Counted from the stretch's first letter, positions 12,146 to 43,918 are shown. The stretch: DNA of 64,000 nt from an uncultured Candidatus Saccharibacteria bacterium (GCA_964513645.1 CAZENF010000003.1:127914-191913); one strand, 5' to 3'. The notes: generated by a model from the sequence alone, not told the origin. Program-made: numbers and translations.

Positions 12146-12181
12146 AATAGTTTTTTGTGAATGAGCTTTAGTGTATGGTAT
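12146..12181 (+). promoter_or_regulatory. Sigma70 promoter with extended -10 (TTGTGA-18-TGgTATAAT)
   Basis: ttgtga...tggtataat immediately upstream of the msrA ATG at 12192. Confidence 0.5.
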
Positions 12182-12191
12182 AATTTTTCTA

Positions 12192-20598: not shown

Positions 20599-20607
20599 TT
20601 ATGTACT

Positions 20608-21678: not shown

Positions 21679-21688
21679 AGTTCAGTCC

Positions 21689-23620: not shown

Positions 23621-23623
23621 ACT

Positions 23624-26925: not shown

Positions 26926-26926
26926 A

Positions 26927-27625
26927 ATGAAAAAAATAAAAGTTACAACCAGCTGGGATGACGGCCATATGCTCGACATCCGTATCGCTAAACTCTTGAG
27001 AAAATACAACCTTAAGGGGACGTTTTTTATTTCTCCCAAGGACAGGGAGCTTTCTCCGACCGAACGTTTGACTGGCGGGGAGATAAAAATGCTGTCCAAA
27101 GAATTTGAGATCGGCGCACATACGATGACGCATCCGCTTTTAACCCGCGTTGAGGACCATATCGCCTATAAGGAAATCCTTGATTCCAAGAATTATCTTG
27201 AAAAGATCCTCCACAAACCGGTTAGAAGTTTTTGTTATCCCGGAGGTTTTTATAAAAAGAAACACCAACTTATCCTAAAAAAGCTCGGCTTTAAGTTAAG
27301 CAGGACAGTCAGCAGATTCGAGACTGAAACTGGTTCGAATTTGTTTGCTGTCCCGACAACTGTCCACGCCTACCGTCATTGGTCGGATATCGTTCCGATA
27401 TTTAAAAATGCCGGCTTCAGAAAATTCCTTTCCCGATATCTGAATTGGGATGAACTGGCCATATCCATGTTCGACAAAATAGCCGAGACCGGAGGCGTTT
27501 TTCATCTATGGGGTCATTCCTGGGAAATAGAAAAAAACAATGACTGGGAAAGATTGGAACGAGTTTTTAAACATATTTCAAATCACGCTAACGCCAAATA
27601 TATAACCAATGGAGACGTCGCCTAA
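26927..27625 (+). CDS. Polysaccharide deacetylase (CE4 / NodB homology domain)
   Basis: TTSWDDGHMLDIRIAKLLRKYNLKGTFFI (TFDDG-like motif 1), GAHTMTHP (motif 2 His); starts 2 nt after the upstream gene. Confidence 0.65.
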   Translation: MKKIKVTTSWDDGHMLDIRIAKLLRKYNLKGTFFISPKDRELSPTERLTGGEIKMLSKEFEIGAHTMTHPLLTRVEDHIAYKEILDSKNYLEKILHKPVRSFCYPGGFYKKKHQLILKKLGFKLSRTVSRFETETGSNLFAVPTTVHAYRHWSDIVPIFKNAGFRKFLSRYLNWDELAISMFDKIAETGGVFHLWGHSWEIEKNNDWERLERVFKHISNHANAKYITNGDVA

Positions 27626-30600
27626 AACAATTCTGCTTGTCGCTCCGTATTTTCCTCCTGACGGCGGCGGTTTAGAACGCTATGCCTTCGAGATCGCCAA
27701 GCGTCTCGCTAAAGGCTACAACTGGCGCATCGTCGTGATGGTGTCCGGCAAAAAATATGGTGAGGATACTAAAGAAGAATCAAACGGCCTGACGATATAC
27801 CGATTAGGATATAGTCTCAAAATTTCTAATACTCCATTAGGATTTTTGTGGTTTGGTAAAATTCGCAAAATTTTAAAGACTGAAAAACCAGATATCATAA
27901 ACATCCACACTCCTGTTCCGGGTATCGGAGATATAACTTCTTTTTTAGCGGGCAGCATCCCGACCGTGGTTACATACCATACCGGCAGCATGCTTAAGAG
28001 TAAGATCTTGCCGGATATTGCTGTCCGGTTATATGAGTACGGGCCTATGAGATTACTTCTGAACCAGGCCAAACATATAATTTGTTCGTCTGACTTTGTC
28101 CGTTTTAATTTTCTTGGGCGCTATATTCATAAAAGCACTACTATCACTCCTGCGGTCGATGTAGATATATTTAAGCCAGATGTCTCAAAAAAAGCTAAAG
28201 ACCCGACTGTATTGTTTGTCGCAGGTCTTGGCCATTCAGAACAGTACAAAGGTCTTGCTACTCTTTTGAATGCCATTTCGATGGTCAAAAATGATATTTC
28301 GAATATCCGACTTATTGTGGCCGGAGACGGGGATATGCGCTCAGAATACGAATCCCAAGCGGAAAAATTAGGAATCGGAAGCTCTGTAGATTTCAGAGGT
28401 AAATTAAGCAATGGCAAATTAGTTGCGGCTTATCAGGAAGCTCACATTTTTGTCTTACCGACATCAAATGACAGTTTTCCTTTAACCATCCTCGAAGCTA
28501 TGGCAACAGAATTGCCTGTGGTCTCAACCAGGATCGGTAGCATACCTTCTATAATTGAAAGCGGTCAAGACGGCTTCTTAATTAACGGATTTACTGCAGA
28601 GGCCGTAGCTTCTGATATATCGAAGATAATTAAAGACGAAATCGTTAAATTGAATTTTGGTCTTGCTGGTCGTAAAAAAGTATTAGATAAGTTTAATTGG
28701 AAATTGCGTGCTGATCAATATCAAAACGTTCTGTCATCTATTTCAGAATTTAAATTAAGGACAGTTCGAAAAATAGCTATTGTAACTCCATATTTTTATC
28801 CCAAGATTGGCGGACTTGAAAATTATGCTCTTGAAATGGGCAGAGCTTTAAGGCGCGACGGTAACGATATTTTTGTCATTACCAGTAATCATTTAAACAA
28901 AAAATGGCAATACGAAGAAATAGAAGGTATGAAGATTTATCGCATGCCAAGATTGTTTAAGATATCGAACACGCCGGTAAATCCTTTATGGTATTTATGG
29001 GTCTGGCGTATTTTAAGGCTTGAAAGACCAGATCTTATCAATGCCCATACCCCTGTTCCATTTATTGCCGATGTGACCGAAAGAGTAAGGGGCAATATAC
29101 CCCTTGTTTTAAATTATCACAATGATCTTGTGAAAAGTAATTTGTTTGCAGATCTGCTTTGTCGCATATCCTATATCTTTATGATAAACAAAACACTGCG
29201 TGATGCAGATAAGATAATAGCGACATCTCAATATTACGCTTCGCAATCCAGTTATTTAAGGCCGCTAATCAGTAAAATTGATTTTGTTCCGCCCGGAGTA
29301 GATATTAATAGATATAAACTCAATCTTGATGCACGCTATTTTAAAGAACGTTTTAAAGATTTTCGCACTGTGCTTTTTGTTGGTCAATTGGATAAAACCC
29401 ACAGACACAAAGGTCTGGACGATATAATAAAAGCCGTTGCCGAACTGAGGTCGTCGATAAAAAATATTAAACTTGTTGTTGTGGGTAAGGGTAATAATAT
29501 TGATTCATATAAAAAATATGCTGCTTCTCTTGGTATTGAAAATCAAGTAAGTTTCGAGGGGTTTGTTGAAGATGATGTATTGCCACAATATTATGCGGGA
29601 GCGGACGTTTTGGTCTTGCCGTCCAAAGATAAGTCAGAAGGTTTCGGGATGGTTATAACTGAGGCAGCTGCCTGCGGTACGCCAGCTGTTGCAAGTAGAA
29701 TCGGAGGAATCCCGGCAGCTCTAATAGACGGAGAGACCGGTATCCTGGTTTCACCTAATAATGTTTTACAACTTTCTGCGGCCATGAAAAAAATACTGGA
29801 CAATGGAACTTTTGCCAAAAAGTTAGGTGATAATGCCAGTTTGCGTATTAAAAAAGAGTTTGCATTATCGGTAGTAACAAGCAAATTTGTGGATATAATT
29901 TGTAAGATCGAGAAGAAAATTTCTATACTGCAAGTAGTGCCTTATTATCCACCCCACATAGGAGGAATGGAATTAAGGGTCAGAGATTTATCTACAAACT
30001 TGGTTAAGGAAAAAGTTGATGTTAATGTCATCACTTCTAACATTGGCGCTCAAAGCGGTTATTCTGAACAGAACGGTGTCAAGGTTAACTATCTGCCAGC
30101 ATTCAATTTTGCTAATACTCCATTTACCCCGGGACTTATATGGTACTTGCTTACTGTAAAAAAGCCCGATGTGTTTCACATACACATATCTCAAGCTTTT
30201 TTTCCGGAAATAGCTGCTATTGTTGCGAAAATAAGAGGTATTCCATACATAACCCATATACGTTTACTAGTTGAAGCATCAGGAGTTTTCGGAATTCTTC
30301 TGCCGATATACAGATATTTTGTATTAAAGCCGGTACTTCTTGGCTCAAAATACGTCATAACTTTGACAGAAGACGATAAGGAAATAGTGAATAATAAATT
30401 TAAGGTCCCGTTACCACGGATAAAAGTAATTCCAAACGCTACAGATTTTGGAATCATTGACTCACCAAGAACTATAACCAAACCTCTCAATATCCTTGCT
30501 GTTGGACGTATATCTCTTCAAAAAAATTATTCATTCATGTTGCAGGTTATGAGTGAATTCAAGAAAATATATGGCCCTGATTTTAAGTTAAAAATTGTTG

Positions 30601-31025
30601 GTACTGGTGACGGTTTATATAACCTTAAAAACGAGGCTGAAAAATTAAATCTCAAAAATAATATTCTATTCTTAGACGAAAAAATAGGTTCAGAACTGGA
30701 AGACATATACAGCAAATCTGATATTTTTCTGCATACATCTACTAAAGAAGGTTTTGGTACTGTTTTTATTGAAGCCATGACCAAGGGCTTGCCAGTGGTA
30801 GCTTCAAATATCCCTGGTTCACGTAATGTGATTATGAATGGAAGGAACGGCTTGTTAAGTGATTTTTCCTCTGAGGATATGGCTAAGAAGCTCGAACTTT
30901 TGTGCAGGGATCAATCCTTATACCAAAAAATCAGTGAAAATAATATTTCAGATGTTAAAAAATACAATTGGGACAATGTAGCGACTGATACGATCAACAC
31001 TTACTTACATGCAAGAAATTTTTAA
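27609..31025 (+). CDS. Triple GT4 glycosyltransferase: three complete tandem GT4 modules in one 1138-aa polypeptide
   Basis: Module starts: TILLVAPYFPPDGGGLERYAFEIA; KIAIVTPYFYPKIGGLENYALEMGRAL; ISILQVVPYYPPHIGGMELRVRDLS. Three C-terminal nucleotide-sugar motifs (DSFPLTILEAMATELPVVST; SEGFGMVITEAAACGTPAVAS; KEGFGTVFIEAMTKGLPVVAS). Confidence 0.75.
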   Translation: METSPKTILLVAPYFPPDGGGLERYAFEIAKRLAKGYNWRIVVMVSGKKYGEDTKEESNGLTIYRLGYSLKISNTPLGFLWFGKIRKILKTEKPDIINIHTPVPGIGDITSFLAGSIPTVVTYHTGSMLKSKILPDIAVRLYEYGPMRLLLNQAKHIICSSDFVRFNFLGRYIHKSTTITPAVDVDIFKPDVSKKAKDPTVLFVAGLGHSEQYKGLATLLNAISMVKNDISNIRLIVAGDGDMRSEYESQAEKLGIGSSVDFRGKLSNGKLVAAYQEAHIFVLPTSNDSFPLTILEAMATELPVVSTRIGSIPSIIESGQDGFLINGFTAEAVASDISKIIKDEIVKLNFGLAGRKKVLDKFNWKLRADQYQNVLSSISEFKLRTVRKIAIVTPYFYPKIGGLENYALEMGRALRRDGNDIFVITSNHLNKKWQYEEIEGMKIYRMPRLFKISNTPVNPLWYLWVWRILRLERPDLINAHTPVPFIADVTERVRGNIPLVLNYHNDLVKSNLFADLLCRISYIFMINKTLRDADKIIATSQYYASQSSYLRPLISKIDFVPPGVDINRYKLNLDARYFKERFKDFRTVLFVGQLDKTHRHKGLDDIIKAVAELRSSIKNIKLVVVGKGNNIDSYKKYAASLGIENQVSFEGFVEDDVLPQYYAGADVLVLPSKDKSEGFGMVITEAAACGTPAVASRIGGIPAALIDGETGILVSPNNVLQLSAAMKKILDNGTFAKKLGDNASLRIKKEFALSVVTSKFVDIICKIEKKISILQVVPYYPPHIGGMELRVRDLSTNLVKEKVDVNVITSNIGAQSGYSEQNGVKVNYLPAFNFANTPFTPGLIWYLLTVKKPDVFHIHISQAFFPEIAAIVAKIRGIPYITHIRLLVEASGVFGILLPIYRYFVLKPVLLGSKYVITLTEDDKEIVNNKFKVPLPRIKVIPNATDFGIIDSPRTITKPLNILAVGRISLQKNYSFMLQVMSEFKKIYGPDFKLKIVGTGDGLYNLKNEAEKLNLKNNILFLDEKIGSELEDIYSKSDIFLHTSTKEGFGTVFIEAMTKGLPVVASNIPGSRNVIMNGRNGLLSDFSSEDMAKKLELLCRDQSLYQKISENNISDVKKYNWDNVATDTINTYLHARNF

Positions 31026-32931
31026 TAAAAACACATTAATAGGGCAAATAAGCGCATACTATCCGCCCCACATAGGCGGAATTGAAAATGTGGTTGAGGC
31101 TGTTAGTAGGGAATTATCTGTGATGGGTCGGAATGTACAGGTGATTACAGCATCTAACTCACACTTATCAGAAAAAAACCATCCTCGTATAATCGGGTTG
31201 AAATATTTTGAAATTGCTCATGTACCTTTTACTCCCGGGCTTCTTTGGTATCTTTTGATGTTGCCCAAAAATTCTTTAATGCATCTTCATATTGCTCATG
31301 CATTTTTTCCAGAGCAAGTATTTATTGCTTCAAAAATAAGGAAGATACCATATATAGTTCATTTTCATCTCGACGTAGGACCATCGACTTTTTTAGGACC
31401 CCTATTCTTGTTATATAAAAAGATTGTCTGGGGGCCTGTTTTGCGCAGCGCAAGTAAGGTTATCGTTTTATCAAATGAACAATTAAGTTTGGTTTCCAGC
31501 AAGTATGGGGTTAAGAAAGAAAATATCGTCATTGTTTCTAATGGTGTGGGCCAAGAATTTATTAAGATCGGTAAGGAGCGTAAATCGTTTAGCAAAACTC
31601 TGCGTCTTCTGTCCGTCGGTCGTTTAGCAATACAAAAACGTCCGGAACGGCTATTGTATGCCATGTTGTCGTTGAATGTTCCTGTACATATGACTTTTGT
31701 TGGGGACGGTGAAGATAGAGAAAAACTTGAAACATTGGCCCGTGAATTGAAACTGACCAATGTCACTTTTGTCGGAAAAAAATTCGGAGACGAATTACTT
31801 GAGTATTACCGCAATTCAGATGTCTTTTTAATATCTTCAGATGAAGAGGGGATGCCCTTAGTGGTACTCGAAGCCATGGCTTCCGGTCTGCCTGTTATTG
31901 GTACGGATGTCATCGGTACACGTGAACTTGTAAAAGATACAGGGTTGCTTGTAGCCGAGCCATACCTCCAGAATTTTACATATGCCATAAGTAAACTTCA
32001 TTATAATCCAGAATTAGTAAAAGAATTGTCACAAAAAAGTGTTGAGAAAGCCAGTTCTTATACTTGGGCCAGTGCGGTTGAAAAAATAACTAAAATTTAT
32101 ACCGATATTTTAAAAAATGATGTTGTCTCACAAAATCGTAACCGGGAAATTGAGTTCTGGGACAATGTTAGCAAGAGAGATAAAGAATGGATTGTCAGTA
32201 CACCAAAGGAAGAAATCGAACAATTTATAGTTGATAAAATACGGAGAGGAAATACCAGATGGTGGGAGCCGATGATTGGCAAGTTAGAGGGCAAAAAAAT
32301 ATTAGACATAGGGTGTGGTACAACTTTTTTTGCGACATACTGGTCGTTGACGGGTAATGATTCTTTTGGTTCCGACTATTCACCAGAAACTATCAAAACA
32401 AATAATCTTTTACACGAAAAATTAGGATTGAAAAAGAATTTTTATGTTGCTTCGTCCGAGAAAATAGATGCAGCGGATAACTCTTTGGATGTAGTGCATA
32501 TGCGTTGGGTAATACATCATATACCACCAGAATTACAAAATAGCTCTATGTATGAGATAAAACGAGTTCTTAAACCTGGCGGAAAACTTATCGTATTTGA
32601 AACCAATTATGCCTACCCATTTAGATGGATAGTTCAGACACCGATATTGCGTAGTTTAAATTTTTTAAGACATTACGCTATAAATAAAGGTTGGTTAGAC
32701 CCAGAAGAAAAAGCTCTAACCAACGAAGGATATATAAATCTTATTGAGAATAATGGCTTTAAGATAAATATTGTTGACCACGATTTTACGTTCTTCTACT
32801 ACCCAGTAAGTTTATTGACCCGAAATGAATTCATAAGAAACTTAGTTCGGGAGTTTGATAATACAATCAGATCAATTATATCGGATAGGTTTAGTAAGGA
32901 TATTAAAATAATTGCAGAAAAATATGAATGA
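31009..32931 (+). CDS. GT4 glycosyltransferase fused to a C-terminal class I SAM-dependent methyltransferase
   Basis: N-terminal ISAYYPPHIGGIENVV...EGMPLVVLEAMASGLPVIGT. C-terminal ILDIGCGTTFFATYW (MTase motif I), LDVVHMRWVIHHI, LKPGGKLIVFE (motif post-II/III). Overlaps upstream by 17 nt. Confidence 0.75.
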   Translation: MQEIFNKNTLIGQISAYYPPHIGGIENVVEAVSRELSVMGRNVQVITASNSHLSEKNHPRIIGLKYFEIAHVPFTPGLLWYLLMLPKNSLMHLHIAHAFFPEQVFIASKIRKIPYIVHFHLDVGPSTFLGPLFLLYKKIVWGPVLRSASKVIVLSNEQLSLVSSKYGVKKENIVIVSNGVGQEFIKIGKERKSFSKTLRLLSVGRLAIQKRPERLLYAMLSLNVPVHMTFVGDGEDREKLETLARELKLTNVTFVGKKFGDELLEYYRNSDVFLISSDEEGMPLVVLEAMASGLPVIGTDVIGTRELVKDTGLLVAEPYLQNFTYAISKLHYNPELVKELSQKSVEKASSYTWASAVEKITKIYTDILKNDVVSQNRNREIEFWDNVSKRDKEWIVSTPKEEIEQFIVDKIRRGNTRWWEPMIGKLEGKKILDIGCGTTFFATYWSLTGNDSFGSDYSPETIKTNNLLHEKLGLKKNFYVASSEKIDAADNSLDVVHMRWVIHHIPPELQNSSMYEIKRVLKPGGKLIVFETNYAYPFRWIVQTPILRSLNFLRHYAINKGWLDPEEKALTNEGYINLIENNGFKINIVDHDFTFFYYPVSLLTRNEFIRNLVREFDNTIRSIISDRFSKDIKIIAEKYE

Positions 32932-35303
32932 ATAAAGTGCGTATTAAAATCTCGACAATATTAATTGTATCCATAGTTTGGTGGGCGGTCTTTGTGTGCC
33001 TGTCTTTGCTTCAGTTTAATCCGTTTGAAATTCTGAACATTACGGGTTTTCTTTTTCTAATTATTATTCCAGGCCTCTTAACCGTTTTGACTTTGGGTTT
33101 GGCCAATCTTGAATTCTGGGCAGCATCTGCTTTTGTTGTGGCATTCAGTATTTTTGAACTGATGTTAACCGCTCTTCTTGGCAACACCTTTTTGCCTTAT
33201 ATTGGTTTTCCACATCCGTTCCTGCCGAATATACTTATGACCCAGGTCTCGGTCCTGTTCTGGGTCCTGATTGGCATAAATTTATACGACGGAAATAAAT
33301 TTGAATTTAATATCCCGCGCTATTTTATTTTCAAAGACTTTAAGAATTTCTGCTTTGCCACTCTTTCGGTCTTGTTTGTTGTCTTAAGTATTTTCGGCGC
33401 TATACGGCTGAATAACGGGGCAAGTAATATTCTGACTATGATTATGCTCGGTTCTATGGGTCTTTATTTTGCTGTGATGCTTTTTAATCAGGATAAGTTC
33501 GAGGAGAACACGATACTTACAGGTTTGTATTTTATTGCTTTAGCTCTTCTTTTAATGACGAGTCTGCGTGGTTGGTATATTACCGGGCATGATATTCAGT
33601 CTGAATTCAAGGTTTTTCAGTTGCTTAAGGAAGATGCAGTCTGGAATATTGCGGCCTATCGTGATGCATACAATGCCTGTTTAAGCATTACTATTCTTCC
33701 GTCGATATTTTCATTCTTGCTCCGCATTCCTGACCAATACATATATAAACTTCTTTTCCAGATAATATTTGCCTTTTCTGTACCGGTTATATACATGACT
33801 GGACGCAAATGGGCAGGTCCGAGAATTTCTCTCCTTGGAATTTTATATTTCATCGGATTTCCAACATTTTTCACTGATATGCCGTTTCTTATTCGCCAGG
33901 AGACCGCCTTCCTGTTCTATGGGCTTATGCTCTATTCAATATTTGCAGCTGATCTTGAAATATTTACACGCCGGATGCTTTTTATCCTTATGGGCTTCGG
34001 TGTAATATTTTCCCACTACTCTACTACATATACGGTTTTGATGATATTTGGTTTAGCTGTTTTTTTCCGGCCAATACTTATCAAACTATTTGAAAGATTT
34101 GAAGACTCATATCTTGTCAAAAAATCAGGACTTGCGTCTTTGCTTGCTTATAACAGTCATGAAAAAGGTAAGATTACTATGGGCATGATTTTTCTCTTAC
34201 TTGCGGCGAGCTTTTTCTGGACGTCCAGTATCACTCAGACAGGAGGAGGTTTATCCAAAGTAATAAATGAGACAGTCTCAGCAGTGCAAAACGGTTTTGG
34301 AGAGGGGAACCGCTCGATTGATATAAATACGCTTCTTAGTTTCAGCCATCCTGACCAAAACCAAGAAATGCAGGGGTTTATCAAAAATTCAATAGGTAAG
34401 ATACGTGCCCAAGCAAATCCGGGCATATTTTATCCCGAAAAATCTTATAGCCAATACTCATTCTCCGCCTTACCGCAGGAATTAGTGCCTTTAACAGGCG
34501 GAGCTCAATGGCTGATTAATCACGGTATAAACATCGGAAAAATTATGACACTGTTTGGTTCCATTCTCGGAAAGCTGATAGAGGTTCTGGCTCCTTTGGG
34601 TATGATACATGTTTTGTTCAAAAAGAAGGTAGTTACATACATAGATGATGAGATCTATCTTATATCATTTTTCTCATTTGTGTTTATTCTTATGAACATC
34701 GTTTTGCCGGTGCTCTCGACTGAATACGGAATATTCCGTGCAATGCAGCAAGCAATGTTCATTATTGCCCCTATTATAGTATTGGGCAGTATGTCGTTGG
34801 GGGATATTTTGGCCAAAATTATCAGACATTCTAAAACAGCAATTATTTTTGCCACGCTTATGGCTCTGGTATTTTTCACTTATTCCACCTCTTTTGACCG
34901 CGAACTTATCGGCGGCTATTCAGCGGTTCTCCATTTAAGTAATTACGGTACCTATTATGACAACTATCTTATTCATGATGTTGAGGTTGTTGGTGTAGAA
35001 TGGATAACCAATATAGCTACAGCCAACCCGGAGAACATCAACGGAGTCCGGCTCTCGGTTCAAACCGACAGATATTCACGGGCAAAATTCGCATCATTAA
35101 CTACCTTGTCGACGGACAATGATATTTTTCCTGGGGTAGTTAGGAAATCGGCTTATGTATTCTTAAACCTGGCTAACGTAACCAAACAGCGTGCCGTAGC
35201 GTTCTATAATGGCGACCCTATTGCTTATGCTTATCCTGTAAAATTTTTGGATGAAAATAAAAACCTTATCTATGACAGCAACGGAGCCAGGGTTTATAAA
35301 TAA
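32928..35303 (+). CDS. Large polytopic membrane protein (putative GT-C-type glycosyltransferase, polymerase or YfhO-like)
   Basis: 791 aa. More than 12 predicted TM helices in two blocks separated by a predicted extracytoplasmic region, plus a 150-aa C-terminal soluble domain. No signature motif recognised. Overlaps upstream by 4 nt. Confidence 0.4.
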   Translation: MNKVRIKISTILIVSIVWWAVFVCLSLLQFNPFEILNITGFLFLIIIPGLLTVLTLGLANLEFWAASAFVVAFSIFELMLTALLGNTFLPYIGFPHPFLPNILMTQVSVLFWVLIGINLYDGNKFEFNIPRYFIFKDFKNFCFATLSVLFVVLSIFGAIRLNNGASNILTMIMLGSMGLYFAVMLFNQDKFEENTILTGLYFIALALLLMTSLRGWYITGHDIQSEFKVFQLLKEDAVWNIAAYRDAYNACLSITILPSIFSFLLRIPDQYIYKLLFQIIFAFSVPVIYMTGRKWAGPRISLLGILYFIGFPTFFTDMPFLIRQETAFLFYGLMLYSIFAADLEIFTRRMLFILMGFGVIFSHYSTTYTVLMIFGLAVFFRPILIKLFERFEDSYLVKKSGLASLLAYNSHEKGKITMGMIFLLLAASFFWTSSITQTGGGLSKVINETVSAVQNGFGEGNRSIDINTLLSFSHPDQNQEMQGFIKNSIGKIRAQANPGIFYPEKSYSQYSFSALPQELVPLTGGAQWLINHGINIGKIMTLFGSILGKLIEVLAPLGMIHVLFKKKVVTYIDDEIYLISFFSFVFILMNIVLPVLSTEYGIFRAMQQAMFIIAPIIVLGSMSLGDILAKIIRHSKTAIIFATLMALVFFTYSTSFDRELIGGYSAVLHLSNYGTYYDNYLIHDVEVVGVEWITNIATANPENINGVRLSVQTDRYSRAKFASLTTLSTDNDIFPGVVRKSAYVFLNLANVTKQRAVAFYNGDPIAYAYPVKFLDENKNLIYDSNGARVYK

Positions 35304-35304
35304 T

Positions 35305-38300
35305 ATGAAATTCATAATCGTAAATTCATTTCACAGAGACGACAAAGGTGACGCAGCGCTCACCCATGTTTTGATCGATCAGCTTTTATCCATCGACCCG
35401 AAGGCCGACATTGCTGTTTCGAGCATGGAGGAACCGTCCAACTACCCTTCATTTTATAAGGGACGCAATATCGGTTCTATCGAGCTTTATTCATCCTCAC
35501 AAATTCACCCCGGCTTGAGCCATATATTTTACAAAGTGTACTCGTTCTTAGCATTGTTTTTAACCGCCGAGGCTGGTAAAAAATTCTCATGGGTATTATC
35601 CAAAGACCTCGCTAAGATATACGAAGAATACAGAATAGCTGATATGATAATTTCTGTCGGAGGCGGATACTTTACAACTAAGCCTAACTTTGGCAGCCGT
35701 CTGCATTTGCTGTTTGCTCTTGAAACGTTAATGCTTTGCAAACGCATGGGCCTTAAAGTTGTTACCGCTCCGGTATCGGTCGGGCCGTTTCAGTATTCAT
35801 ACGAAGCCAGATATGCTTCCCGAATACTTAAAAAAATGGACTTGGTGATGTTGCGGGAAGATGTAAGTAAGAAATATTTTGTTGATAAGGAAGACAACCT
35901 GCCGGAAAACATTATTCGTGTACCTGACAGCGCTTTTGCTTTTAATCCGGAAGGGGATTTTGATTTGCGCGGTCTGGTTAAGGTAAAACCTGAACAAAAA
36001 ATTCTTATTTTAAGCGTACGCAACTGGCTCTTGTCGGATAAACAATCAGTTTACGAAAAAGCCCATGCCGATCTAATTGACCACATTGCTCAAAAATATC
36101 CGGATATTTTGCCAGTATTCATAAATCAATGCACCTTTCCTGATGTCAGTGAAGATGACCGTCTTGTTGTCGAAAGGATAATGGCGATGTCCAAGTCGAA
36201 AAAAGCGGCGTTTATTGCCGAAGATCTCGACTATATAAAGGTAAAACTTGCATATAAGCAGGCGGATTTTGTGATAGGTACGAGATTTCATGCCATGGTA
36301 TTCGGTCTGGCTTATCAGGTACCGGGAATTGCAATTGAGTATGAACATAAAACCCGCGGTATTATGCGTGACTTAGGTCTTGAAGAATGGGTAATTTCTA
36401 TTAGCAAAGTAACTTCAGAAAAACTTATTCAGCTATTCGGCGATATAGTAAAATTCCGAGAATTTTATAAAGAGCATTTGAAGAAGATAATGCCAGGGTA
36501 TAGTCACTCCACCGACAACGCCGTGAATATACTTTTAAATGTACTTCGAAAAAGAAACGAAGTTTATGTTCCCGGTAAAATAAGTCAAAAAATTAATAAA
36601 ATAATTTCTAAATTATATAACGACAGCTTATACAGAAATTCTTTTTATCTTATATTGGCCACCGCCGTTTTAGCCGGATTTGGATTTTTCTTCTGGCTCA
36701 TCAGTGCCCATTATATTTCGGCGGAGCAGATAGGAATTGCTACTGCTCTTATCTCGGCAATGAATATTATTGCCATTTTAAGTTTGATAGGTTTTGACAG
36801 CGCTATTGTCAGGTTTTTGTGGCATTCAACTAAGCGGAATGACAAACTCAATACCGCAATTATCTTGGTTGGTTCGGCTGCAACCCTGTTAAGCACAGCT
36901 TTCCTGTTGTTCTTGCCTTATATATCACCTAAGCTCGAATTTATCAGAAATAGTCCGCTAACTCTTTTTGCATTCATAATTTTCTGTGTCATGTCGTCTA
37001 TAAATATCCTTACCGATGCTGTTTTTTTGGCGTATCGAAAAACTGATTTTTCAATGATTATAAATACGATCTTCAGTTTCGTTAAAATGCTGTTGCCTTT
37101 GCTTTTTGTAAGATGGGGTGCATTTGGGATATTTTCAGCCGCTGCCATCGGCCAGTCGGTCGGGTTCATTTTGAGTATTTTTGCGATGATATGGAAATTT
37201 GATTATAAACCTAAATTTGTTGTGAATATGGAAATAGTCCGCGAGGTCTGGGATTATTGCGCCGCTAATTATGTGGCCGGTATTTTTAACCTTATCCCGG
37301 TAATGCTTTTGCCCATAATTATTACTAATCACCTCGGTTCGGCCCAAGCGGCCTATTTCTATATCGTTATGATGATAGCTAACCTCCTTTATGTTATTCC
37401 GCAGGCCGCCAATCGTTCTCTTTTTGCCGAGGGAGCTTTTGATGAAAAATCTTTCCATAAAAACATAGACAAAGCCGTTAAGATGATAGGCATATTACTT
37501 TTGCCGGCAATAATTATCTTTATTCTGGGCGGCAATTTTATACTTTCATTTTTCGGTAAAAATTATTCCGCCGAGGGCATCAATTTCTTTTATCTTGTTA
37601 TTTTTTCAGGTTTATCGGTAAGCATGTATTCTCTCTCAAACTCATTGTACCGGGTCAAGAAACAACTTACCCCGCTTATTATTTCAAACGCTGTCTATGC
37701 CTTCACGATCTTAGCTACCGCTTATCTCTTGCTTGATCACGGTCTGGTCGGCATTGGTCTTGCCTGGTTTGCCGGTAATACTTTGGCCTGTGTCGGATAT
37801 TTATTTTATATGAAAGAAGCTGAATATAAAATGATAGGCCGCGGTTGGCAGTATACGGTCTATGATATGGGAAATAGCAGAGTAGAAAAGAAGTATAATT
37901 CAATTTTTTTGTCCTATTTTATGATGTTTAAGGACGCGTTCAGGTATTTAAGGATGCCGGACCTGGCTTTCAGGAAGTATTATCGGGAAACTCAAAAAAT
38001 AGCCATGAACTCTCTTGAAAAAGTAATGGCTTCTCCTCTTGATAAAAATTTGTTCGGTAATCCGAAAATGATAGGAACTGTTGGATATGAGCAGGACCAC
38101 CTTAAGTCTCTTGGTAAGTATTTTATGGAACATAGCGCGGACGAATCAAAGGATAAGATAGACCGGGTGGTCAAATTTTGTCTGATGCTGTTCGAGCACT
38201 CATTGGCGGAAAAATATTTTAATATAGCAGACAATTTTGGTCTGGATGCTTCAGGTAATATCGTGTTGATAGATCTTGGGGAAATTATTGATTCGCGGGA

Positions 38301-38424
38301 AGAAATATCCGTTCAGATAAAAAACCGGGCATGGTCCGCCCCGGACGTTATTTCCGAGTTTCCGGAAAAACTACGCGGGTATTTTGTCCGGTCAATGGAT
38401 AATGCATTTGCCAATAAAATATAA
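35305..38424 (+). CDS. Fusion protein: polysaccharide pyruvyl transferase (CsaB/WcaK family) + Wzx-like MOP flippase + C-terminal soluble domain
   Basis: N-terminal ISVGGGYFTT...DFVIGTRFHAMVFGLAYQVPGIAIEYEHKTRG (PS_pyruv_trans). Middle: at least 12 TM with Wzx/polysaccharide-biosynthesis-protein pattern. C-terminal 240 aa unassigned. Start taken at ATG 35305 (2 nt after upstream stop); the track start at 35251 overlaps the upstream gene. Confidence 0.6.
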   Translation: MKFIIVNSFHRDDKGDAALTHVLIDQLLSIDPKADIAVSSMEEPSNYPSFYKGRNIGSIELYSSSQIHPGLSHIFYKVYSFLALFLTAEAGKKFSWVLSKDLAKIYEEYRIADMIISVGGGYFTTKPNFGSRLHLLFALETLMLCKRMGLKVVTAPVSVGPFQYSYEARYASRILKKMDLVMLREDVSKKYFVDKEDNLPENIIRVPDSAFAFNPEGDFDLRGLVKVKPEQKILILSVRNWLLSDKQSVYEKAHADLIDHIAQKYPDILPVFINQCTFPDVSEDDRLVVERIMAMSKSKKAAFIAEDLDYIKVKLAYKQADFVIGTRFHAMVFGLAYQVPGIAIEYEHKTRGIMRDLGLEEWVISISKVTSEKLIQLFGDIVKFREFYKEHLKKIMPGYSHSTDNAVNILLNVLRKRNEVYVPGKISQKINKIISKLYNDSLYRNSFYLILATAVLAGFGFFFWLISAHYISAEQIGIATALISAMNIIAILSLIGFDSAIVRFLWHSTKRNDKLNTAIILVGSAATLLSTAFLLFLPYISPKLEFIRNSPLTLFAFIIFCVMSSINILTDAVFLAYRKTDFSMIINTIFSFVKMLLPLLFVRWGAFGIFSAAAIGQSVGFILSIFAMIWKFDYKPKFVVNMEIVREVWDYCAANYVAGIFNLIPVMLLPIIITNHLGSAQAAYFYIVMMIANLLYVIPQAANRSLFAEGAFDEKSFHKNIDKAVKMIGILLLPAIIIFILGGNFILSFFGKNYSAEGINFFYLVIFSGLSVSMYSLSNSLYRVKKQLTPLIISNAVYAFTILATAYLLLDHGLVGIGLAWFAGNTLACVGYLFYMKEAEYKMIGRGWQYTVYDMGNSRVEKKYNSIFLSYFMMFKDAFRYLRMPDLAFRKYYRETQKIAMNSLEKVMASPLDKNLFGNPKMIGTVGYEQDHLKSLGKYFMEHSADESKDKIDRVVKFCLMLFEHSLAEKYFNIADNFGLDASGNIVLIDLGEIIDSREEISVQIKNRAWSAPDVISEFPEKLRGYFVRSMDNAFANKI

Positions 38425-38432
38425 ACTGAACC

Positions 38433-39638
38433 ATGAAAATATCCAACATTCGAACGAAGATAGATAGTGACACCGTTACTCTGATGGCCGACTGCAAGAT
38501 AAGGCCGGTAGGTATTGACACAGTATATTTTAAATTCCCACTTAAATATAGGAATTTTATCTATGAAGATGCAAGTCCTTTCGCTGCGGCTTTATTGATA
38601 CCTTCGATGTATTTTGATCAATCTCTCGAGATAGACGGAACGATAAGCGCCAAACTCTATGAAGGGATGCACAAGGCCCAAGACGTTCTTTTGGGCTGGA
38701 ACTTAAAAGACCCAAGGTTAAATAGAATAGAGATAAAAGTTAAGAATACTGCCAGGGATTCCGCATCTCCGGATAAAGTTGCAATGTTTTTTTCCGGAGG
38801 GGTGGACTCCTTTCATACTTTTCTTAAACATGAACATGACAAAATTGACCCCCTCACACACTTAATACTGGTTAATGGCAATGATATCGATATTCGCAAC
38901 AAACAATTATGGTCAGAAACAAGTGAGAGAATCGGAGCGGTCGCCAAAGAAACGGGCAAGGAAGTGATAGAAGTTGAAACAAACGTTCAGGTATTGACAG
39001 AGCCGATGTTAAACCCTGAATATACTCACGGTGGAAATCTCGGAGCGATGGGGTTATGCCTTCGAGGCGGACTTAAAAAAATATACATTGCTTCAACTTT
39101 CAGCTATGAACAGAATATGCCGTACGGTTCGAGTCCGGAGCTTGATTATTTATGGAGCAGTGAAGTTTTACAATTTGAACACGACGGTGCCGAAACCATA
39201 AGAGTTAAGAAAGTTGAGGATTTCATTGCCAAATCCCCGCTTGCATTGAAATATCTACGGGTCTGTAACCGCAATGTCAAAGGTACTTATAATTGCGGCA
39301 AATGTGAAAAATGTACCCGTACAATGCTTAACTTATATATGGCCGGGGCGTTGGATAAGGCACAAACTCTCCCGCATATTATTGATCCCAAACTTTTGGC
39401 ATGTAATGTTTCTCTCGATGGTCCAACCAACGACAGTTATACGCGACTTCATAAGACTATGATCGAAAAGAATATCGATAAAGAACTTCGGGATGCGGTT
39501 AAGTGGGGAGTAGATAATATGATAACAGTCTCTCAAACCCCTAAAGAAAAAATTATCCGCGGGATGATACGCCTTGACCATATGTATTTAAGAGGTTTCC
39601 TGTTCAAGATATGGTTAAGTATCGTTCATCCGTATTAA
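38433..39638 (+). CDS. PP-loop ATP pyrophosphatase family protein with QueC-like C-terminal zinc motif (candidate sugar amidotransferase)
   Basis: FFSGGVDSFHTF (SGGxDS PP-loop) at about residue 115. C-terminal C-x9-CGKCEKC resembles the QueC zinc site. N-terminal 110 aa unassigned. Last gene of the co-directional glycan cluster. Confidence 0.45.
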   Translation: MKISNIRTKIDSDTVTLMADCKIRPVGIDTVYFKFPLKYRNFIYEDASPFAAALLIPSMYFDQSLEIDGTISAKLYEGMHKAQDVLLGWNLKDPRLNRIEIKVKNTARDSASPDKVAMFFSGGVDSFHTFLKHEHDKIDPLTHLILVNGNDIDIRNKQLWSETSERIGAVAKETGKEVIEVETNVQVLTEPMLNPEYTHGGNLGAMGLCLRGGLKKIYIASTFSYEQNMPYGSSPELDYLWSSEVLQFEHDGAETIRVKKVEDFIAKSPLALKYLRVCNRNVKGTYNCGKCEKCTRTMLNLYMAGALDKAQTLPHIIDPKLLACNVSLDGPTNDSYTRLHKTMIEKNIDKELRDAVKWGVDNMITVSQTPKEKIIRGMIRLDHMYLRGFLFKIWLSIVHPY

Positions 39639-39767
39639 ACAGTAATAAACCTTGATAGTGTTACGGTAAAATATTTGTAAGAATAGTCATTTTTTCCACG
39701 TTTTTTAATTCGTTTTTTTAATGTAAATTTTAAAAAAATTACGTAAGTTTTAAGCCGGAAAAACGTC

Positions 39768-39796
39768 TTGTAGAAACAGTTTTAAACTGCTACAAT
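39768..39796 (+). promoter_or_regulatory. Sigma70-like promoter (TTGTAG-17-TACAAT) overlapping the annotated ATG of the downstream gene
   Basis: ttgtag at 39768-39773, 17-nt spacer, tacaat at 39791-39796. If used, translation starts downstream (candidate ATG 39843, MNNNSEGK...). Confidence 0.4.
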
Positions 39797-42440
39797 GACA
39801 TCATTAAATTTAGCTTTTTCAGGCCAGGACTTACTATTTCCAATGAACAACAATTCGGAGGGAAAATTATACATTGCGGGTATCTTGGTTGCCTTGGCCG
39901 TCATAATATTGGCGGGATATTTCCTATCCCCGTTTTCGTTTACTTTTGATCTTGCTAATTTACACGGTTCTCTTCAGGGCGGGAAGAATCCTCAACAGTA
40001 CGCCGCTTTGGTTTCTCCCGGCCTTGATACAACTCCTCCGATTGTAAGTTCCTTCGATATGCAACCCCGGACTATCAGTGCGGGCAATTATGCCACCGCC
40101 TCTTTTAATGTTACCGACTCTGGTGGCTCTCATATTGTCCGTGTTGCTCTTAACCGTGCGCCGTATAGCTCCTCCGGTTGTAATGTCGCTGATAAGTCAA
40201 GTTGTGACTGGATAAGCGTTGCAAATTCAAATACTTCTTCTGGCCTCGATTCCTGGACCGGGACTTTGATGGATAACCCTGGCCAGGGTACTTGGTGGTA
40301 CGGTTTTATGGTGGTGGACGGTGCCAATAATTTCGGCTATGAACCGGCTACAGTCGAGGTCATAGTTACAGCTGCTGTTCCGACCCCGACTCCGGGTGCG
40401 GATACTATCAAACCCAAAGTAACTTCTTTTGATGTTCAACCCCGAAATATAAATGTTGGTAGCTCTGTTAAAGTTTCCTTTACAGTAGTTGATTCTGGTG
40501 GTTCACATTTGAGTCGTGTTGGTATCAATCGGGCTTTATATAATTCAACCAACTGCAATGCTTCGGTAAAAACCGGTTGTCAGTGGGTCAGTGGCGGAAG
40601 ATTGTATCCTACAAGCGGATTAGATTCATGGTCTTCAAGTGCTGATAATTCTCCTGCTCTTGGAACATGGTGGTATGGTATATATGTAACTGATAATGGC
40701 GGTAATTTCGGATACGAGCCATATCAGATACAGGTTATCGTAAATCCTGCCTCGACACCTACTGCAACTCCATCACCAACTGCGACTCCTACGCCCACAC
40801 CAACTCCGACACCGAGGCCGAGTTCAACGTCGGTTCCGACGCCTACGCCCGGTTCAGGAGGACCTGGACCTACTACGCCTCCGACACCTACTCCGACTCC
40901 GACACCTGTTCCGACCGGCAGCGACACTATAAGACCGAAAGTAAACGCTTTTGATGTTCAACCTCGAACCCTTAACGTTGGCGGTTCAGTTCTGGCAACC
41001 TTTACTGTTTCTGATACCGGTGGCTCTCACTTATCTAAAGTCGGCTTCAGTCGGGCATCATATAATTCTTCAAATTGCAGCGAAACAGTAAAAACCACCT
41101 GCCAGTGGGTCAGTTTAGCAAAGACAGCGACACCTTATACCGACAACTGGAATTCTTCCTGGGCCGATACTCCTTCCGCCGGAACCTGGTGGTATGGAAT
41201 GTCTGCGACAGATGGCGCCGGCAATGTTGGCTATGAACCGGCAACGCTCGAAGTGTTCGTGAATACTGTTTCTTCAACCCCGACTTCGACTCCTGTTCCG
41301 GTTCCTACTGCCACTCCAAGCCAAACTCCTGTTCCGACACCTGCCCCAACTCCAACTCCGATACCTACGCCCGTTCCTACGGCAATTCCGACACCGACTC
41401 CAACTCCGTCACCAACTGTAACCCAGAATTATTCTTTTGGTTTTTCTGTAGCTGAAAGTTTCCTACCTTTATCAAGTGCTGAACTAAATGCTCGTATGGA
41501 TGATTTAGTGGCTTTGCATATTGGCTGGCTAAGGTTTGATATCGACTGGTCATCAGTGCAAGGACTAAATTCAACAATCTTTGATTGGACAGCTATAGAT
41601 AATTTAATAAGTGCAGCCAATTCGCATCACATAAAGCTTATGCCGGTTATTGATTCGACTCCACCTTGGGCTCGGCCGGCTAATTGTACTTCTAATAAAT
41701 GGTGTCCGCCGGCTGATAATAATGCTTTCGCAAATTTTGCCAAAGCTGTTGTTCAACGTTATACACCTCAAGGAGTCCATACTTGGGAAATATGGAACGA
41801 ACCCAATATCAATAGTTTTTGGCAATCTGGCCCTAATTCATCAGCTTATGCAAATCTTTTGACGGCAACCTATAATGCGATCAAAAGCGTAGATTCTTCC
41901 GCAACTGTTATATCGGCAGGATTGGCTCCTGCCGCCACTCAAGGTTCAACTATATCGCCAGTAGATTTCTTAACCAGTATGTATCAGGCGGGAGCCAAAA
42001 ATTACTTTGACGCTGTCGGTTTTCATCCATATTCATTCCCGGCCATGCCTTCTTACTACGCGGTTTGGAATGCCTGGTCGCAGATGTCCTCTACACCCAC
42101 AAGTTTGCGAAGTGTAATGTCGGCCAACGGAGATTCGGCTAAACAGATATGGTTAACCGAATATGGCGCACCTACAGGAGGGCCAGGAGCCGTTGCAGAC
42201 GTTAATAATTATAACTTCTCGGCCAGCCCGGATCATGTTACCGAAGCATTACAAGCGTCGATGTATCAGGATTCTATTAATTTGGTCCGGGGCTATTCAT
42301 GGGCCGGACCAATGTTCTTCTATTCCTATAAAGACTTAGGTACCTCTTCGAGCACCAACGAGAACTTCTTTGGCGTAATAAGATATGACGGCACTCAAAA
42401 ACCGGCTTATCAGACGGTAAAACAACTACTCGCCCAATAG
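39795..42440 (+). CDS. Secreted multidomain glycoside hydrolase: three repeated ~115-aa beta-domains joined by Pro/Thr-rich linkers + C-terminal GH5-like (clan GH-A) catalytic domain
   Basis: N-terminal signal/TM; three repeats (FD(M/V)QPR..(V/A)SF.V.DSGGSH..RV...RA.Y.S..C.....C.W.S......TWWYG......N.GYEP....V.V); PTPTPTPTP linkers; catalytic EIWNEPN (acid/base) and IWLTEYGAPTGG (nucleophile) motifs. True start may be 39843. Confidence 0.7.
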   Translation: MTSLNLAFSGQDLLFPMNNNSEGKLYIAGILVALAVIILAGYFLSPFSFTFDLANLHGSLQGGKNPQQYAALVSPGLDTTPPIVSSFDMQPRTISAGNYATASFNVTDSGGSHIVRVALNRAPYSSSGCNVADKSSCDWISVANSNTSSGLDSWTGTLMDNPGQGTWWYGFMVVDGANNFGYEPATVEVIVTAAVPTPTPGADTIKPKVTSFDVQPRNINVGSSVKVSFTVVDSGGSHLSRVGINRALYNSTNCNASVKTGCQWVSGGRLYPTSGLDSWSSSADNSPALGTWWYGIYVTDNGGNFGYEPYQIQVIVNPASTPTATPSPTATPTPTPTPTPRPSSTSVPTPTPGSGGPGPTTPPTPTPTPTPVPTGSDTIRPKVNAFDVQPRTLNVGGSVLATFTVSDTGGSHLSKVGFSRASYNSSNCSETVKTTCQWVSLAKTATPYTDNWNSSWADTPSAGTWWYGMSATDGAGNVGYEPATLEVFVNTVSSTPTSTPVPVPTATPSQTPVPTPAPTPTPIPTPVPTAIPTPTPTPSPTVTQNYSFGFSVAESFLPLSSAELNARMDDLVALHIGWLRFDIDWSSVQGLNSTIFDWTAIDNLISAANSHHIKLMPVIDSTPPWARPANCTSNKWCPPADNNAFANFAKAVVQRYTPQGVHTWEIWNEPNINSFWQSGPNSSAYANLLTATYNAIKSVDSSATVISAGLAPAATQGSTISPVDFLTSMYQAGAKNYFDAVGFHPYSFPAMPSYYAVWNAWSQMSSTPTSLRSVMSANGDSAKQIWLTEYGAPTGGPGAVADVNNYNFSASPDHVTEALQASMYQDSINLVRGYSWAGPMFFYSYKDLGTSSSTNENFFGVIRYDGTQKPAYQTVKQLLAQ

Positions 42441-42441
42441 C

Positions 42442-42669
42442 TTGAATAAATACGAATTAAAACTTATTCGTTCGCTTAGTTTGACGTTGTTTGTTTTCAG
42501 TTTTGCCGGCTGGGTTTATATTGCCGGGAACGCGATATCTCATCCCTGGACCCTCGATATGCCGCTGACTCATTTTGTTGATTTTCCGCGCGAAGATACT
42601 TTTGGTGTGGCTTGTTTCGGGATATCTTTTGTCTCGTTTTTTATCTATAATCTCGTAAAAGAAAACTGA
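42442..42669 (+). CDS. Small membrane protein
   Basis: 75 aa, two hydrophobic helices; no recognisable domain. Confidence 0.3.
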   Translation: MNKYELKLIRSLSLTLFVFSFAGWVYIAGNAISHPWTLDMPLTHFVDFPREDTFGVACFGISFVSFFIYNLVKEN

Positions 42670-42670
42670 T

Positions 42671-43783
42671 ATGAAAAAGCATTTACTCAACAAAAAATTC
42701 CTGTACGGATTGGTTGTTCTTTTTTTTATCATTCTGGTATTTACTTGGTATTCCGTCAGGAGCATGCCGGTTGTCGTTAATTTAAAAACTCCTCAACCCG
42801 CAAAGCTTAATTACCGTTTCGGTTTATCGGTCAGCCAGTCCTTGCTTTATAATTTAACCGATAACGAACTCAATTCCCGTTTAGACGATATTGCATCGAT
42901 GAACATTGGTTGGCTAAGATTTGATATCGACTGGTCTTCTGTCCAGCCGTCCGGTCCGGATTATTATGACTGGTCAGAAATTGATCGTCTCGTTGCAGGT
43001 GCGAACGTGAGAAATATAAAGCTCTTGCCGATAATCGACAATGTCCCGGCTTGGGCCAGGATTTCCGGATGTCATACTGCCTGGTGTCCGCCGGCAGATG
43101 ACAATACTTTTGCTAATTTTGTGTCAACTGTTGTAAGGCGGTACTCCTCCAAAGGCATTACCACTTGGGAAATATGGAATGAACCGAATATGAGAGGATT
43201 CTGGAAACCTGTACCTAACCCTGGAGCATATGCCGAACTTTTAAGAGCAGTATTCTTGGTGATAAAAAAACAGGAATCTTCCGCGACCGTTATTTTGGGC
43301 GGTCTCGGTTCAGCTGACCCTGATTACGGTGATATTTATGCCGCCGGTTTTTTGTCGTCGATTTATAAAGCCGGAGCCGGGCCGTATTTTGATGCGGTTG
43401 CATTTCATCCATACTCTTATCCCGGTGAACCTTCCTCTGATTTTCCGAGGAACAGTTGGCCCCAGATGCTTCAGACCGGTTCGGGTTTGCTTAGCGTGAT
43501 GGCTTCGAACGGAGACTCGTATAAAAAAATATGGTTGACCGAATTCGGCGCGCCGACTGGCGGTCCTGATTCCGTAACCGAAGACGGGCAGGCCTCGATA
43601 ATTCAGGATGCTGTCGGCTTGTGGCGGAACTATGACTGGGCAGGGCCTTTGTTCGTCTATACTTATAAGGATTCAGGCACCAATCCCAACACCAATGAAA
43701 ATTTCTTCGGCCTCCTCCGTTATAATGGTACTCAAAAGCCTGCATATAATTTGCTCAAAAACTTTGCAACTACGGTAAAGTAA
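42671..43783 (+). CDS. Membrane-anchored GH5-like (clan GH-A) glycosidase, paralog of the catalytic domain of the upstream gene
   Basis: NIGWLRFDIDWSSVQ, NIKLLPIIDNVPAWAR, TTWEIWNEPNMRGFW, YFDAVAFHPYSYP, IWLTEFGAPTGGP, NENFFGLLRYNGTQKPAY; block-for-block parallel to residues 520-881 of the upstream protein. Confidence 0.7.
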   Translation: MKKHLLNKKFLYGLVVLFFIILVFTWYSVRSMPVVVNLKTPQPAKLNYRFGLSVSQSLLYNLTDNELNSRLDDIASMNIGWLRFDIDWSSVQPSGPDYYDWSEIDRLVAGANVRNIKLLPIIDNVPAWARISGCHTAWCPPADDNTFANFVSTVVRRYSSKGITTWEIWNEPNMRGFWKPVPNPGAYAELLRAVFLVIKKQESSATVILGGLGSADPDYGDIYAAGFLSSIYKAGAGPYFDAVAFHPYSYPGEPSSDFPRNSWPQMLQTGSGLLSVMASNGDSYKKIWLTEFGAPTGGPDSVTEDGQASIIQDAVGLWRNYDWAGPLFVYTYKDSGTNPNTNENFFGLLRYNGTQKPAYNLLKNFATTVK

Positions 43784-43804: not shown

Positions 43805-43836
43805 AAGGCGCCGCTTTACGCGGCGCCTTGCTTATT
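43805..43836 (+). terminator. Intrinsic terminator (GC-rich hairpin)
   Basis: aaggcgccgc-tttac-gcggcgcctt; weak T-tail. Confidence 0.5.
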
Positions 43837-43918
43837 GACTCTAATTTTTTTTGTGATAAAATATAGCAGCGACAAAAGACCGCCATTGGCGGCTCTTACC
43901 GTCTATTTGGCCATATTT

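Follow-up and report, generated by a model that had tools for sequence, protein, structure and literature searches.

Which polymer would be cut by a pair of glycoside hydrolases whose genes lie directly behind a glycan-assembly cluster, and would such a pair serve the cell's own surface or the use of foreign polysaccharides? The question is raised by a 64,000-nucleotide stretch of DNA from an uncultured Candidatus Saccharibacteria bacterium (GCA_964513645.1 CAZENF010000003.1:127914-191913; hereafter the window, with positions counted from its first letter), in which two paralogous genes, encoding an elaborate protein of 881 residues and a simple one of 370 residues, follow such a cluster on the same strand. 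The catalytic domain common to both is best described as a truncated, PslG-like branch of glycoside hydrolase family 39 (GH39), and genes of this type adjoin the same set of glycan-assembly genes in every related locus that was compared. On balance we favour, with moderate confidence, the reading in which both genes encode dedicated hydrolases of the surface polysaccharide made by the Wzx-flippase-type cluster just upstream. The two genes and the main features of their products are the following:

39795..42440, + strand: long paralog gene, 881 residues (open reading frame (ORF) call; protein collection entry P0121)
39867..39926, + strand: N-terminal hydrophobic segment of the long paralog, residues ~25-44, predicted signal anchor or transmembrane helix (Kyte-Doolittle)
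41418..42437, + strand: GH39/PslG-like (beta/alpha)8 catalytic domain of the long paralog (profile against PDB, AlphaFold2, Foldseek, invariant residues)
41799-41801, + strand: acid/base E669 of the long paralog (alignment to PslG)
42159-42161, + strand: nucleophile E789 of the long paralog (alignment to PslG)
42671..43783, + strand: short paralog gene, 370 residues (ORF call; protein collection entry P0001)
43181-43183, + strand: acid/base E171 of the short paralog (alignment to PslG)
43541-43543, + strand: nucleophile E291 of the short paralog (alignment to PslG)

The two proteins share their C-terminal ~340 residues, aligning at 52% identity over 353 residues (BLASTP, E 2e-123), which bears out the paralogy claimed in a preliminary description of this DNA; the short protein is the more divergent one, with 51-55% identity to all others compared. 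That description had also called the two genes adjacent, and although its coordinates were exact, the 230-nucleotide gap between them holds a conserved ORF of 75 residues (see below). Each protein carries a single, strong, N-terminal hydrophobic segment on the Kyte-Doolittle scale. In the short paralog this predicted transmembrane anchor (residues ~10-28) is followed by the GH39/PslG-like domain, in agreement with the simple membrane-anchored enzyme that had been proposed; in the long paralog, where 19-residue windows exceed 1.9 from residues 21-33 onward, the predicted anchor precedes three FN3/Ig-like modules with Pro/Thr linkers and then the catalytic domain. Cys pairs and the Pro/Thr linkers suggest that both enzymes would be extracytoplasmic; within the barrels, the pair is Cys631/Cys637 in the long and Cys134/Cys139 in the short paralog.

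The family of the catalytic domain was established by comparison with solved structures. In a phmmer search of the PDB with the short paralog, PslG ranks first (1.2e-25 over residues 49-366), and a family profile built from 38 catalytic-domain sequences gives the same order when searched against the PDB, with PslG at 3e-37, a Bacteroides GH39 enzyme (5jvk) at 5e-26, GH39 beta-xylosidases at 1e-17 to 1e-9, GH1 enzymes at about 1e-5 (2e-5), and GH5 enzymes at only about 6e-4, in partial alignments. The AlphaFold2 model of the long paralog's catalytic domain (predicted local distance difference test score 95.1, predicted template-modelling score 0.92) shows the alternating strands and helices of a (beta/alpha)8 barrel, and its best 13 Foldseek matches in the PDB are all GH39 enzymes, again with PslG first (4e-23; template-modelling (TM) score 0.79-0.81 when normalised to the query, but only 0.66 when normalised to the target). 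GH5 cellulases and mannanases (PF00150) share the clan GH-A fold and the two catalytic Glu positions and are the source of many annotations in this family; their profile matches, however, fall short of that of PslG by more than 30 orders of magnitude, and their structures rank below all GH39 entries. Both rankings rule out GH5, and the GH5-like assignment made in the preliminary description had to be abandoned.

The Glu of the WNEPN motif (E669/E171) and that of LTE[YF]G (E789/E291) align with positions 139 and 250 of the PslG chain, which correspond to E165 and E276, the catalytic residues of PslG (PMC4928890, PMC6813494), whose E165Q/E276Q double mutant is inactive (PMC4928890). Both are invariant in 38 of 38 family members, along with RFD and HPY motifs and the family-specific Cys pair (C631/C637). 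The alignment of these glutamates, given as NEP and TEY/TEF in the preliminary description, had been set beforehand as the test of its claim of a clan GH-A glycosidase; they do align with acid/base and nucleophile, in a barrel supported by AlphaFold2 and Foldseek, the reference family being GH39 and not GH5. By these signatures both proteins would be retaining clan GH-A enzymes of the PslG type, and both are predicted to be active. The 15-residue loop directly after the nucleophile takes a long form in the long paralog (as in 25 of the 38 family members) and a short form in the short paralog (13 of 38), so that the two enzymes probably differ in their preferences for subsite, cut site or chain context.

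PslG of Pseudomonas aeruginosa (CAZy GH39; PDB 5bx9, 4zn2, 9g17) is thus the closest known relative in both sequence and (beta/alpha)8 structure. It shares the acid/base in WNEPN and the nucleophile in TE[WYF]G (TEWG in PslG), it carries an N-terminal membrane anchor (PMC4928890), as predicted for the window pair, and it is encoded in or beside a Wzx/Wzy-type polysaccharide biosynthesis cluster (PMC4928890, PMC6813494). Where PslG is a single protein, the window family comes as two paralogs, one of which bears FN3-like modules and Pro/Thr linkers at its N-terminus; the barrel contains a family-specific, invariant Cys pair, and a conserved small gene for a protein with two transmembrane segments is associated; the host of PslG is also a diderm proteobacterium, whereas that of the window is apparently of the Patescibacteria type. 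GH39 beta-xylosidases (XynB1 and relatives; PDB 1w91, 2bs9, 1px8, 4ekj) belong to the same family and clan, and the N-terminal half of their barrel, including the acid/base motif, aligns with the window family. They differ in being exo-acting, soluble enzymes of ~500 residues with extra domains and without association with a biosynthetic cluster, and the alignment is partial (roughly to profile position 208-293; TM score 0.67-0.71). Functional analogy, in other folds or CAZy families, is offered by BcsZ, PelA, PgaB, AlgL and WssD, polymer-degrading enzymes that are encoded with synthesis genes and needed for proper production (PMC6813494).

The association of such genes with glycan assembly is not peculiar to the window. 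The upstream cluster is recorded as follows:

25072..39638, + strand: glycan-assembly cluster (Pfam/NCBIfam scans)

It comprises a fusion of glycosyltransferases of families GT2 and GT4, a polysaccharide deacetylase, a triple-GT4 fusion (1138 residues), a GT4-methyltransferase fusion, a DUF2206 membrane protein, a fusion of a pyruvyltransferase with a Wzx-like flippase, and a 401-residue protein without known family. Synteny was compared in seven loci (the window, L004, L005/L006, L024, L025, L026 and L027), all apparently from Patescibacteria, as judged by the names of homologs and typical gene content. In all seven the GH39-like gene directly adjoins the same GT4/DUF2206/flippase set, accompanied in some by pyruvyltransferase and deacetylase genes, which strengthens the tie between the hydrolases and the upstream cluster that had been suggested from the window alone. 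The tandem arrangement of an elaborated and a simple paralog recurs in five loci, the window included. In the protein collection searched, the catalytic family numbers more than 1,100 proteins; those that are named come from Patescibacteria and are labelled cellulase family glycosylhydrolase, beta-xylosidase or PslG (JGI).

The elaboration of the long paralog consists of modules and linkers placed between anchor and barrel:

40026..40373, + strand: module 1, residues 78-193, Cys129/Cys137, TWWYG at 166 (local hidden Markov model, domain E 1.7e-63; tblastn)
40401..40748, + strand: module 2, residues 203-318, Cys254/Cys262, TWWYG at 291
40749..40922, + strand: Pro/Thr/Ser-rich linker, residues 319-376, 80% P+T+S (composition)
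40923..41267, + strand: module 3, residues 377-491, Cys428/Cys436, TWWYG at 464, closest to module 2 (58%)
41268..41417, + strand: Pro/Thr-rich linker, residues 492-541, 78% P+T+S (composition)

The three repeats of ~115 residues, each with a Cys pair (C-x7-C) and TWWYG, were correctly described beforehand: their pairwise identity is 47-58%, with 44 invariant columns, and tblastn with repeat 2 recovers the other two at 1.5e-36 and 1.8e-41, far beyond chance, with no further copies elsewhere in the window. A recent internal duplication is ruled out by the fact that similarity at the DNA level is confined to a 29-nucleotide stretch, next to a protein identity of 47-58%. Of the (PT)n linkers said to separate the repeats, the two long ones are present (78-80% P+T+S), but modules 1 and 2 are joined by 9 residues only (AVPTPTPGA).

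The predicted fold of the module is all-beta and corresponds to a seven- to eight-stranded FN3/bacterial Ig-like (E-set) beta-sandwich. The three window copies match no Pfam or NCBIfam model, those for fn3, Big_x and PKD included, even at E<=1, and none of the carbohydrate-binding module (CBM) family models matched them. Weak similarity to Big_13 (best 2e-4) is seen in six of 21 relatives of the module, hits to Big_3, Big_7 or PKD occur in a few, and a marginal match of the module profile to the Ig V-set (E 0.003) is a hint of an Ig-like fold, not of homology. The CW_7 repeat of Cpl-7 lysozyme, which a three-sequence profile had brought up at a summed 1.7e-7 (~11 bits per repeat, independent E >3), was dropped when the 21-sequence profile gave E 0.63, CW_7 being moreover helical. 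The FN3-like (X1) modules of CbhA from Clostridium thermocellum and the bacterial Ig domain B1 of CelAly (PDB 3pdd, 3pe9, 9kvu) are 15-20% identical to the window modules, with animal FN3 domains and a PKD domain also listed; unlike these X1 and B1 domains, the window modules match no Pfam fn3 or Big model and show the signature FDVQPR...DSGGSH...GTWWYG together with a C-x7-C loop found in their subgroup only.

When 1.84 billion representatives were searched exhaustively with HMMER, 578 proteins with the module came up at E<=1e-3 (211 of them at E<=1e-10), the richest containing 8 or more copies, and a metagenome scan yielded 17 loci. A word-indexed search with the three-repeat profile found no homologs, reflecting a limit of the tool, as P0121 itself is in that collection; nor does the module occur in any of the 120 closest catalytic homologs, its carriers having come to light through synteny and the exhaustive search. 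The family signature reads DxxxPxVxxFDVQPR ... TVxDSGGS ... ELWR ... GTYWYGxHxxDxAGN, the Cys pair being restricted to the subgroup that includes the window copies. Carriers are large proteins of extracellular type, in which the module accompanies GH26 (P0150), GH25 with FG-GAP, PA14, InlB B-repeats, MAM or a C39-like peptidase, or beta-helix, SH3/PG-binding or nuclease-like regions. The repeats are hence a divergent offshoot of the FN3/Ig-like superfamily which no curated model covers and which behaves as a mobile extracellular module. Their description as novel is right insofar as no curated model covers them, but their fold is ordinary and their family comprises at least 578 cluster representatives; likewise, of the earlier alternative between carbohydrate-binding and Ig-like domains, the Ig-like beta-sandwich is upheld and carbohydrate binding found no support in the CBM models.

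A scan of the genome collection brought up only a partial copy, on a contig labelled as an uncultured Gammaproteobacteria metagenome-assembled genome (L003 3-3521, + strand). There the contig edge cuts into a protein of >1170 residues, of whose module the C-terminal half (GAGTWWYGIHVSDQAGNWG) is left, followed by Cys-rich and PKD-like repeats; if the binning is right, the module is not confined to one lineage.

The number and nature of the N-terminal or accessory domains vary among the elaborated paralogs. Window-type FN3-like modules are present in one copy in P0122 (from L005), in two copies in P0134, and in three in the long paralog of the window. By comparison, the elaborated paralog of L025 has two PG_binding_1 domains, a Gly-rich linker and a canonical fn3 domain, that of L004 has Big_7 and PG_binding_1, and that of L027 has two PG_binding_1 domains. 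That this position is taken elsewhere by PG_binding_1, Pfam fn3 or Big_7 lends support to a role of the modules in wall positioning or as spacers.

A third conserved component lies between the two hydrolase genes:

42442..42669, + strand: conserved small ORF, 75 residues, TTG start, two hydrophobic segments, filling the whole 230-nucleotide gap

It shares 63% amino acid identity with its counterpart in L005, and the differences between the two are distributed over codon positions as 20/13/45, a third-position bias. Homologs adjoin the GH39-like gene in six of the seven related loci, and the ORF was passed over by gene callers in L001, L005 and L024. A Pfam search with the small ORF matched no family. 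Its product, with two predicted transmembrane segments, is probably a membrane partner of the hydrolases. In L004 the small protein is doubled in tandem within a single 144-residue gene (11914-12348, + strand), located between the simple GH39-like gene and an elaborated one of 887 residues (Big_7, catalytic domain and PG_binding_1).

How would the pair act on the polymer of the adjoining cluster? The membrane-bound form of PslG supports Psl synthesis, an inner-membrane pool being required for Psl production, and the released form degrades Psl (PMC6813494). By analogy, both enzymes may be held in the cytoplasmic membrane by their single N-terminal helix, with the barrel outside the cell. The short paralog would then reside at the export site, beside the flippase and DUF2206 machinery, and could cut nascent or misassembled chains, thereby keeping synthesis and export running or setting chain length. 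The long paralog would present the same barrel at the tip of a stalk composed of three FN3/Ig-like modules, putatively stapled by disulfides, and ~120 residues of Pro/Thr linker, which by our own estimate (three ~4-nm domains plus ~120 linker residues) could reach tens of nanometres if extended. An active site placed in this manner in the wall or capsule layer might remodel or release mature polymer, in a role resembling that of released PslG, and the 75-residue protein would probably be a membrane partner. A broader and much more speculative extension, to which we assign a low probability, is that the stalked enzyme, the small membrane protein and the membrane-proximal enzyme form a conserved two-tier system controlling the length and shedding of surface glycans in ultrasmall Patescibacteria-type cells, export being the site of action of the short enzyme, whereas the long one would operate on the outer side of the envelope (for instance in detachment from a host cell); the "cellulase" or "beta-xylosidase" family would in that case be engaged in the processing of self-glycans.

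Several observations weigh against the assignment of the pair to the adjoining cluster, or against the family placement on which it leans. Pfam matches alone leave the family open, since those to GH39 (PF01229; 26.0 bits for the long and 22.7 for the short paralog, at a cut-off of 26), to GH5/Cellulase (PF00150; 24.8 and 23.2 bits, about equal to the GH39 scores) and to GH53 are all borderline, and it is the solved structures that settle it. Identity to PslG is only ~22%, and the substrate proposed here would follow from gene neighbourhood and from analogy at that distance. The C-terminal beta-sandwich/carbohydrate-binding domain of PslG and of other GH39 enzymes such as the xylosidases (a carbohydrate-binding domain is mentioned for PslG in PMC7237758) is not present in either paralog, as indicated by alignments that stop at about residue 330 of the 416 in the PslG chain, with the window proteins ending 4-5 residues later. 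Co-transcription with the cluster is at most putative; an AT-rich gap of 156 nucleotides lies upstream of the long paralog gene, and a promoter/terminator scan and an Rfam search gave nothing informative. Finally, the module says nothing specific about the polymer of the cluster, since it is also found on GH26, GH25 and other enzymes.

Some of the same facts would suit enzymes that look outward, that is, catabolic or scavenging glycanases acting on environmental or host-cell polysaccharides to feed a reduced cell, with a stalk that reaches the host surface or an insoluble substrate. Members of the family are annotated in their sources as cellulase family glycosylhydrolase or beta-xylosidase, the literature on the candidate phyla radiation counts GH39/GH5 matches as a capacity for (hemi)cellulose degradation (PMC9868632, PMC7143001), cellulases such as CbhA often contain FN3-like modules, and the window module is itself fused to GH26 and GH25 enzymes elsewhere. 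We nevertheless regard scavenging as unlikely: in all seven loci the gene is an immediate neighbour of the same glycan-biosynthesis cluster, the best match in sequence and structure is an endoglycosidase of a biosynthetic cluster, PslG, 10-20 orders of magnitude above the exo-xylosidases, Pfam/NCBIfam scans revealed no adjoining sugar-uptake genes in the window, and the peptidoglycan-binding domains of some paralogs point to the cell's own envelope. Those domains would in turn also suit a polymer that is wall-linked, such as a pyruvylated secondary cell-wall polymer, instead of a free exopolysaccharide, and hydrolases that act like autolysins in wall growth, division or turnover. The PG_binding_1 domains on the elaborated paralogs of L025, L027 and L004, the match of the pyruvyltransferase domain to CsaB (3e-22) besides that to WcaK (2e-30), and the genes just downstream for a sortase and for a putative surface protein rich in Pro/Thr are all compatible with this proposal, which we hold to be quite improbable given that no gene for an LCP-type ligase was seen in the cluster and that the window's long paralog is devoid of a PG-binding domain.

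A different objection concerns the stalk, whose three modules could be CBMs that tether the long enzyme to its polymer, increasing the local concentration of substrate, and not passive spacers. Conserved aromatic residues (TWWYG, and W62 and W77 of the module) would suit such a function, which might also replace that of the missing PslG-type C-terminal carbohydrate-binding domain. The pattern of W and Y residues, however, fits that of FN3 core strands, as in P0131, fusions of the module with unrelated enzymes occur (EEP nuclease-like domain, C39-like peptidase, GH25 lysozyme), and canonical fn3 or Big_7 domains take the same slot in other paralogs; docking by the modules thus appears doubtful, if by no means far-fetched. 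The reading we retain is that of dedicated hydrolases of the cluster's own surface polysaccharide.

That a hydrolase should belong to a polysaccharide synthesis cluster is in itself unsurprising, since this is a known theme (PslG, BcsZ, PelA, AlgL). What is new relative to PslG is that the enzyme occurs twice, once stalked and once simple, that the stalk contains an FN3-like module not covered by any curated model, and that a small membrane protein accompanies the pair. The result bears on the interpretation of genomes, as the more than 1,100 members of this family, most of them patescibacterial, are labelled cellulase or beta-xylosidase and credited with a capacity to degrade plant polymers, but turn out to be PslG-like and, in every locus examined, to lie beside one conserved surface-glycan cluster. 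Part of the carbohydrate "catabolism" ascribed to Patescibacteria could accordingly be re-read by treating the family as candidate self-glycan hydrolases, a proposal that is both useful and testable. The N-terminal repeats, for their part, define an uncurated FN3/Ig-like family (at least 578 cluster representatives) that could receive a model, and the small conserved gene for a membrane protein, overlooked by gene callers, accompanies the hydrolases.

Further features of the surrounding genes may be recorded. Within the cluster, the ORF at 35251-38424 (+ strand, 1057 residues) joins a polysaccharide pyruvyltransferase (residues 32-366) to a Wzx-like flippase (residues 461-718), followed by a tail of ~300 residues without assignment; in L024 and L025 the pyruvyltransferase and the flippase are separate genes on opposite strands. 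The 401-residue protein (38433-39638, + strand), for which Pfam, NCBIfam and PDB searches gave no match, contains an SGGxDS-like motif (FFSGGVDSF) and CGKCEKC, motifs suggestive of a PP-loop ATPase, and a homolog, likewise of 401 residues and 51% identical to it, occupies the same slot in L025, between the flippase and the hydrolases. The G+C content of the glycan-assembly genes (28000-40000) is 36-40%, the remainder of the window having 42-48%, and it rises again to 45-47% in the hydrolase genes, in part owing to the Pro/Thr linkers.

Directly 3' of the short hydrolase gene, a gene for a flavin adenine dinucleotide (FAD)-dependent monooxygenase (43835-45331, + strand) has a 54%-identical homolog near the L025 pair (L025 11121-12455), and may therefore belong to the conserved neighbourhood. 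The segment 45340-47118 (+ strand) encodes a Pro/Thr-rich protein of 376 residues that has a hydrophobic segment at its N-terminus and, at its C-terminus, LPDTD and then a hydrophobic tail, and immediately 3' of it a sortase-domain protein (46480-47118, + strand), of which the former is possibly a substrate in view of this arrangement. Just upstream of the glycan cluster, genes of type IV pilus type (19384-24091, + strand) encode a T2SSE ATPase, a T2SSF platform protein, an LVIVD-repeat protein and a pilin with an N-terminal methylation motif.

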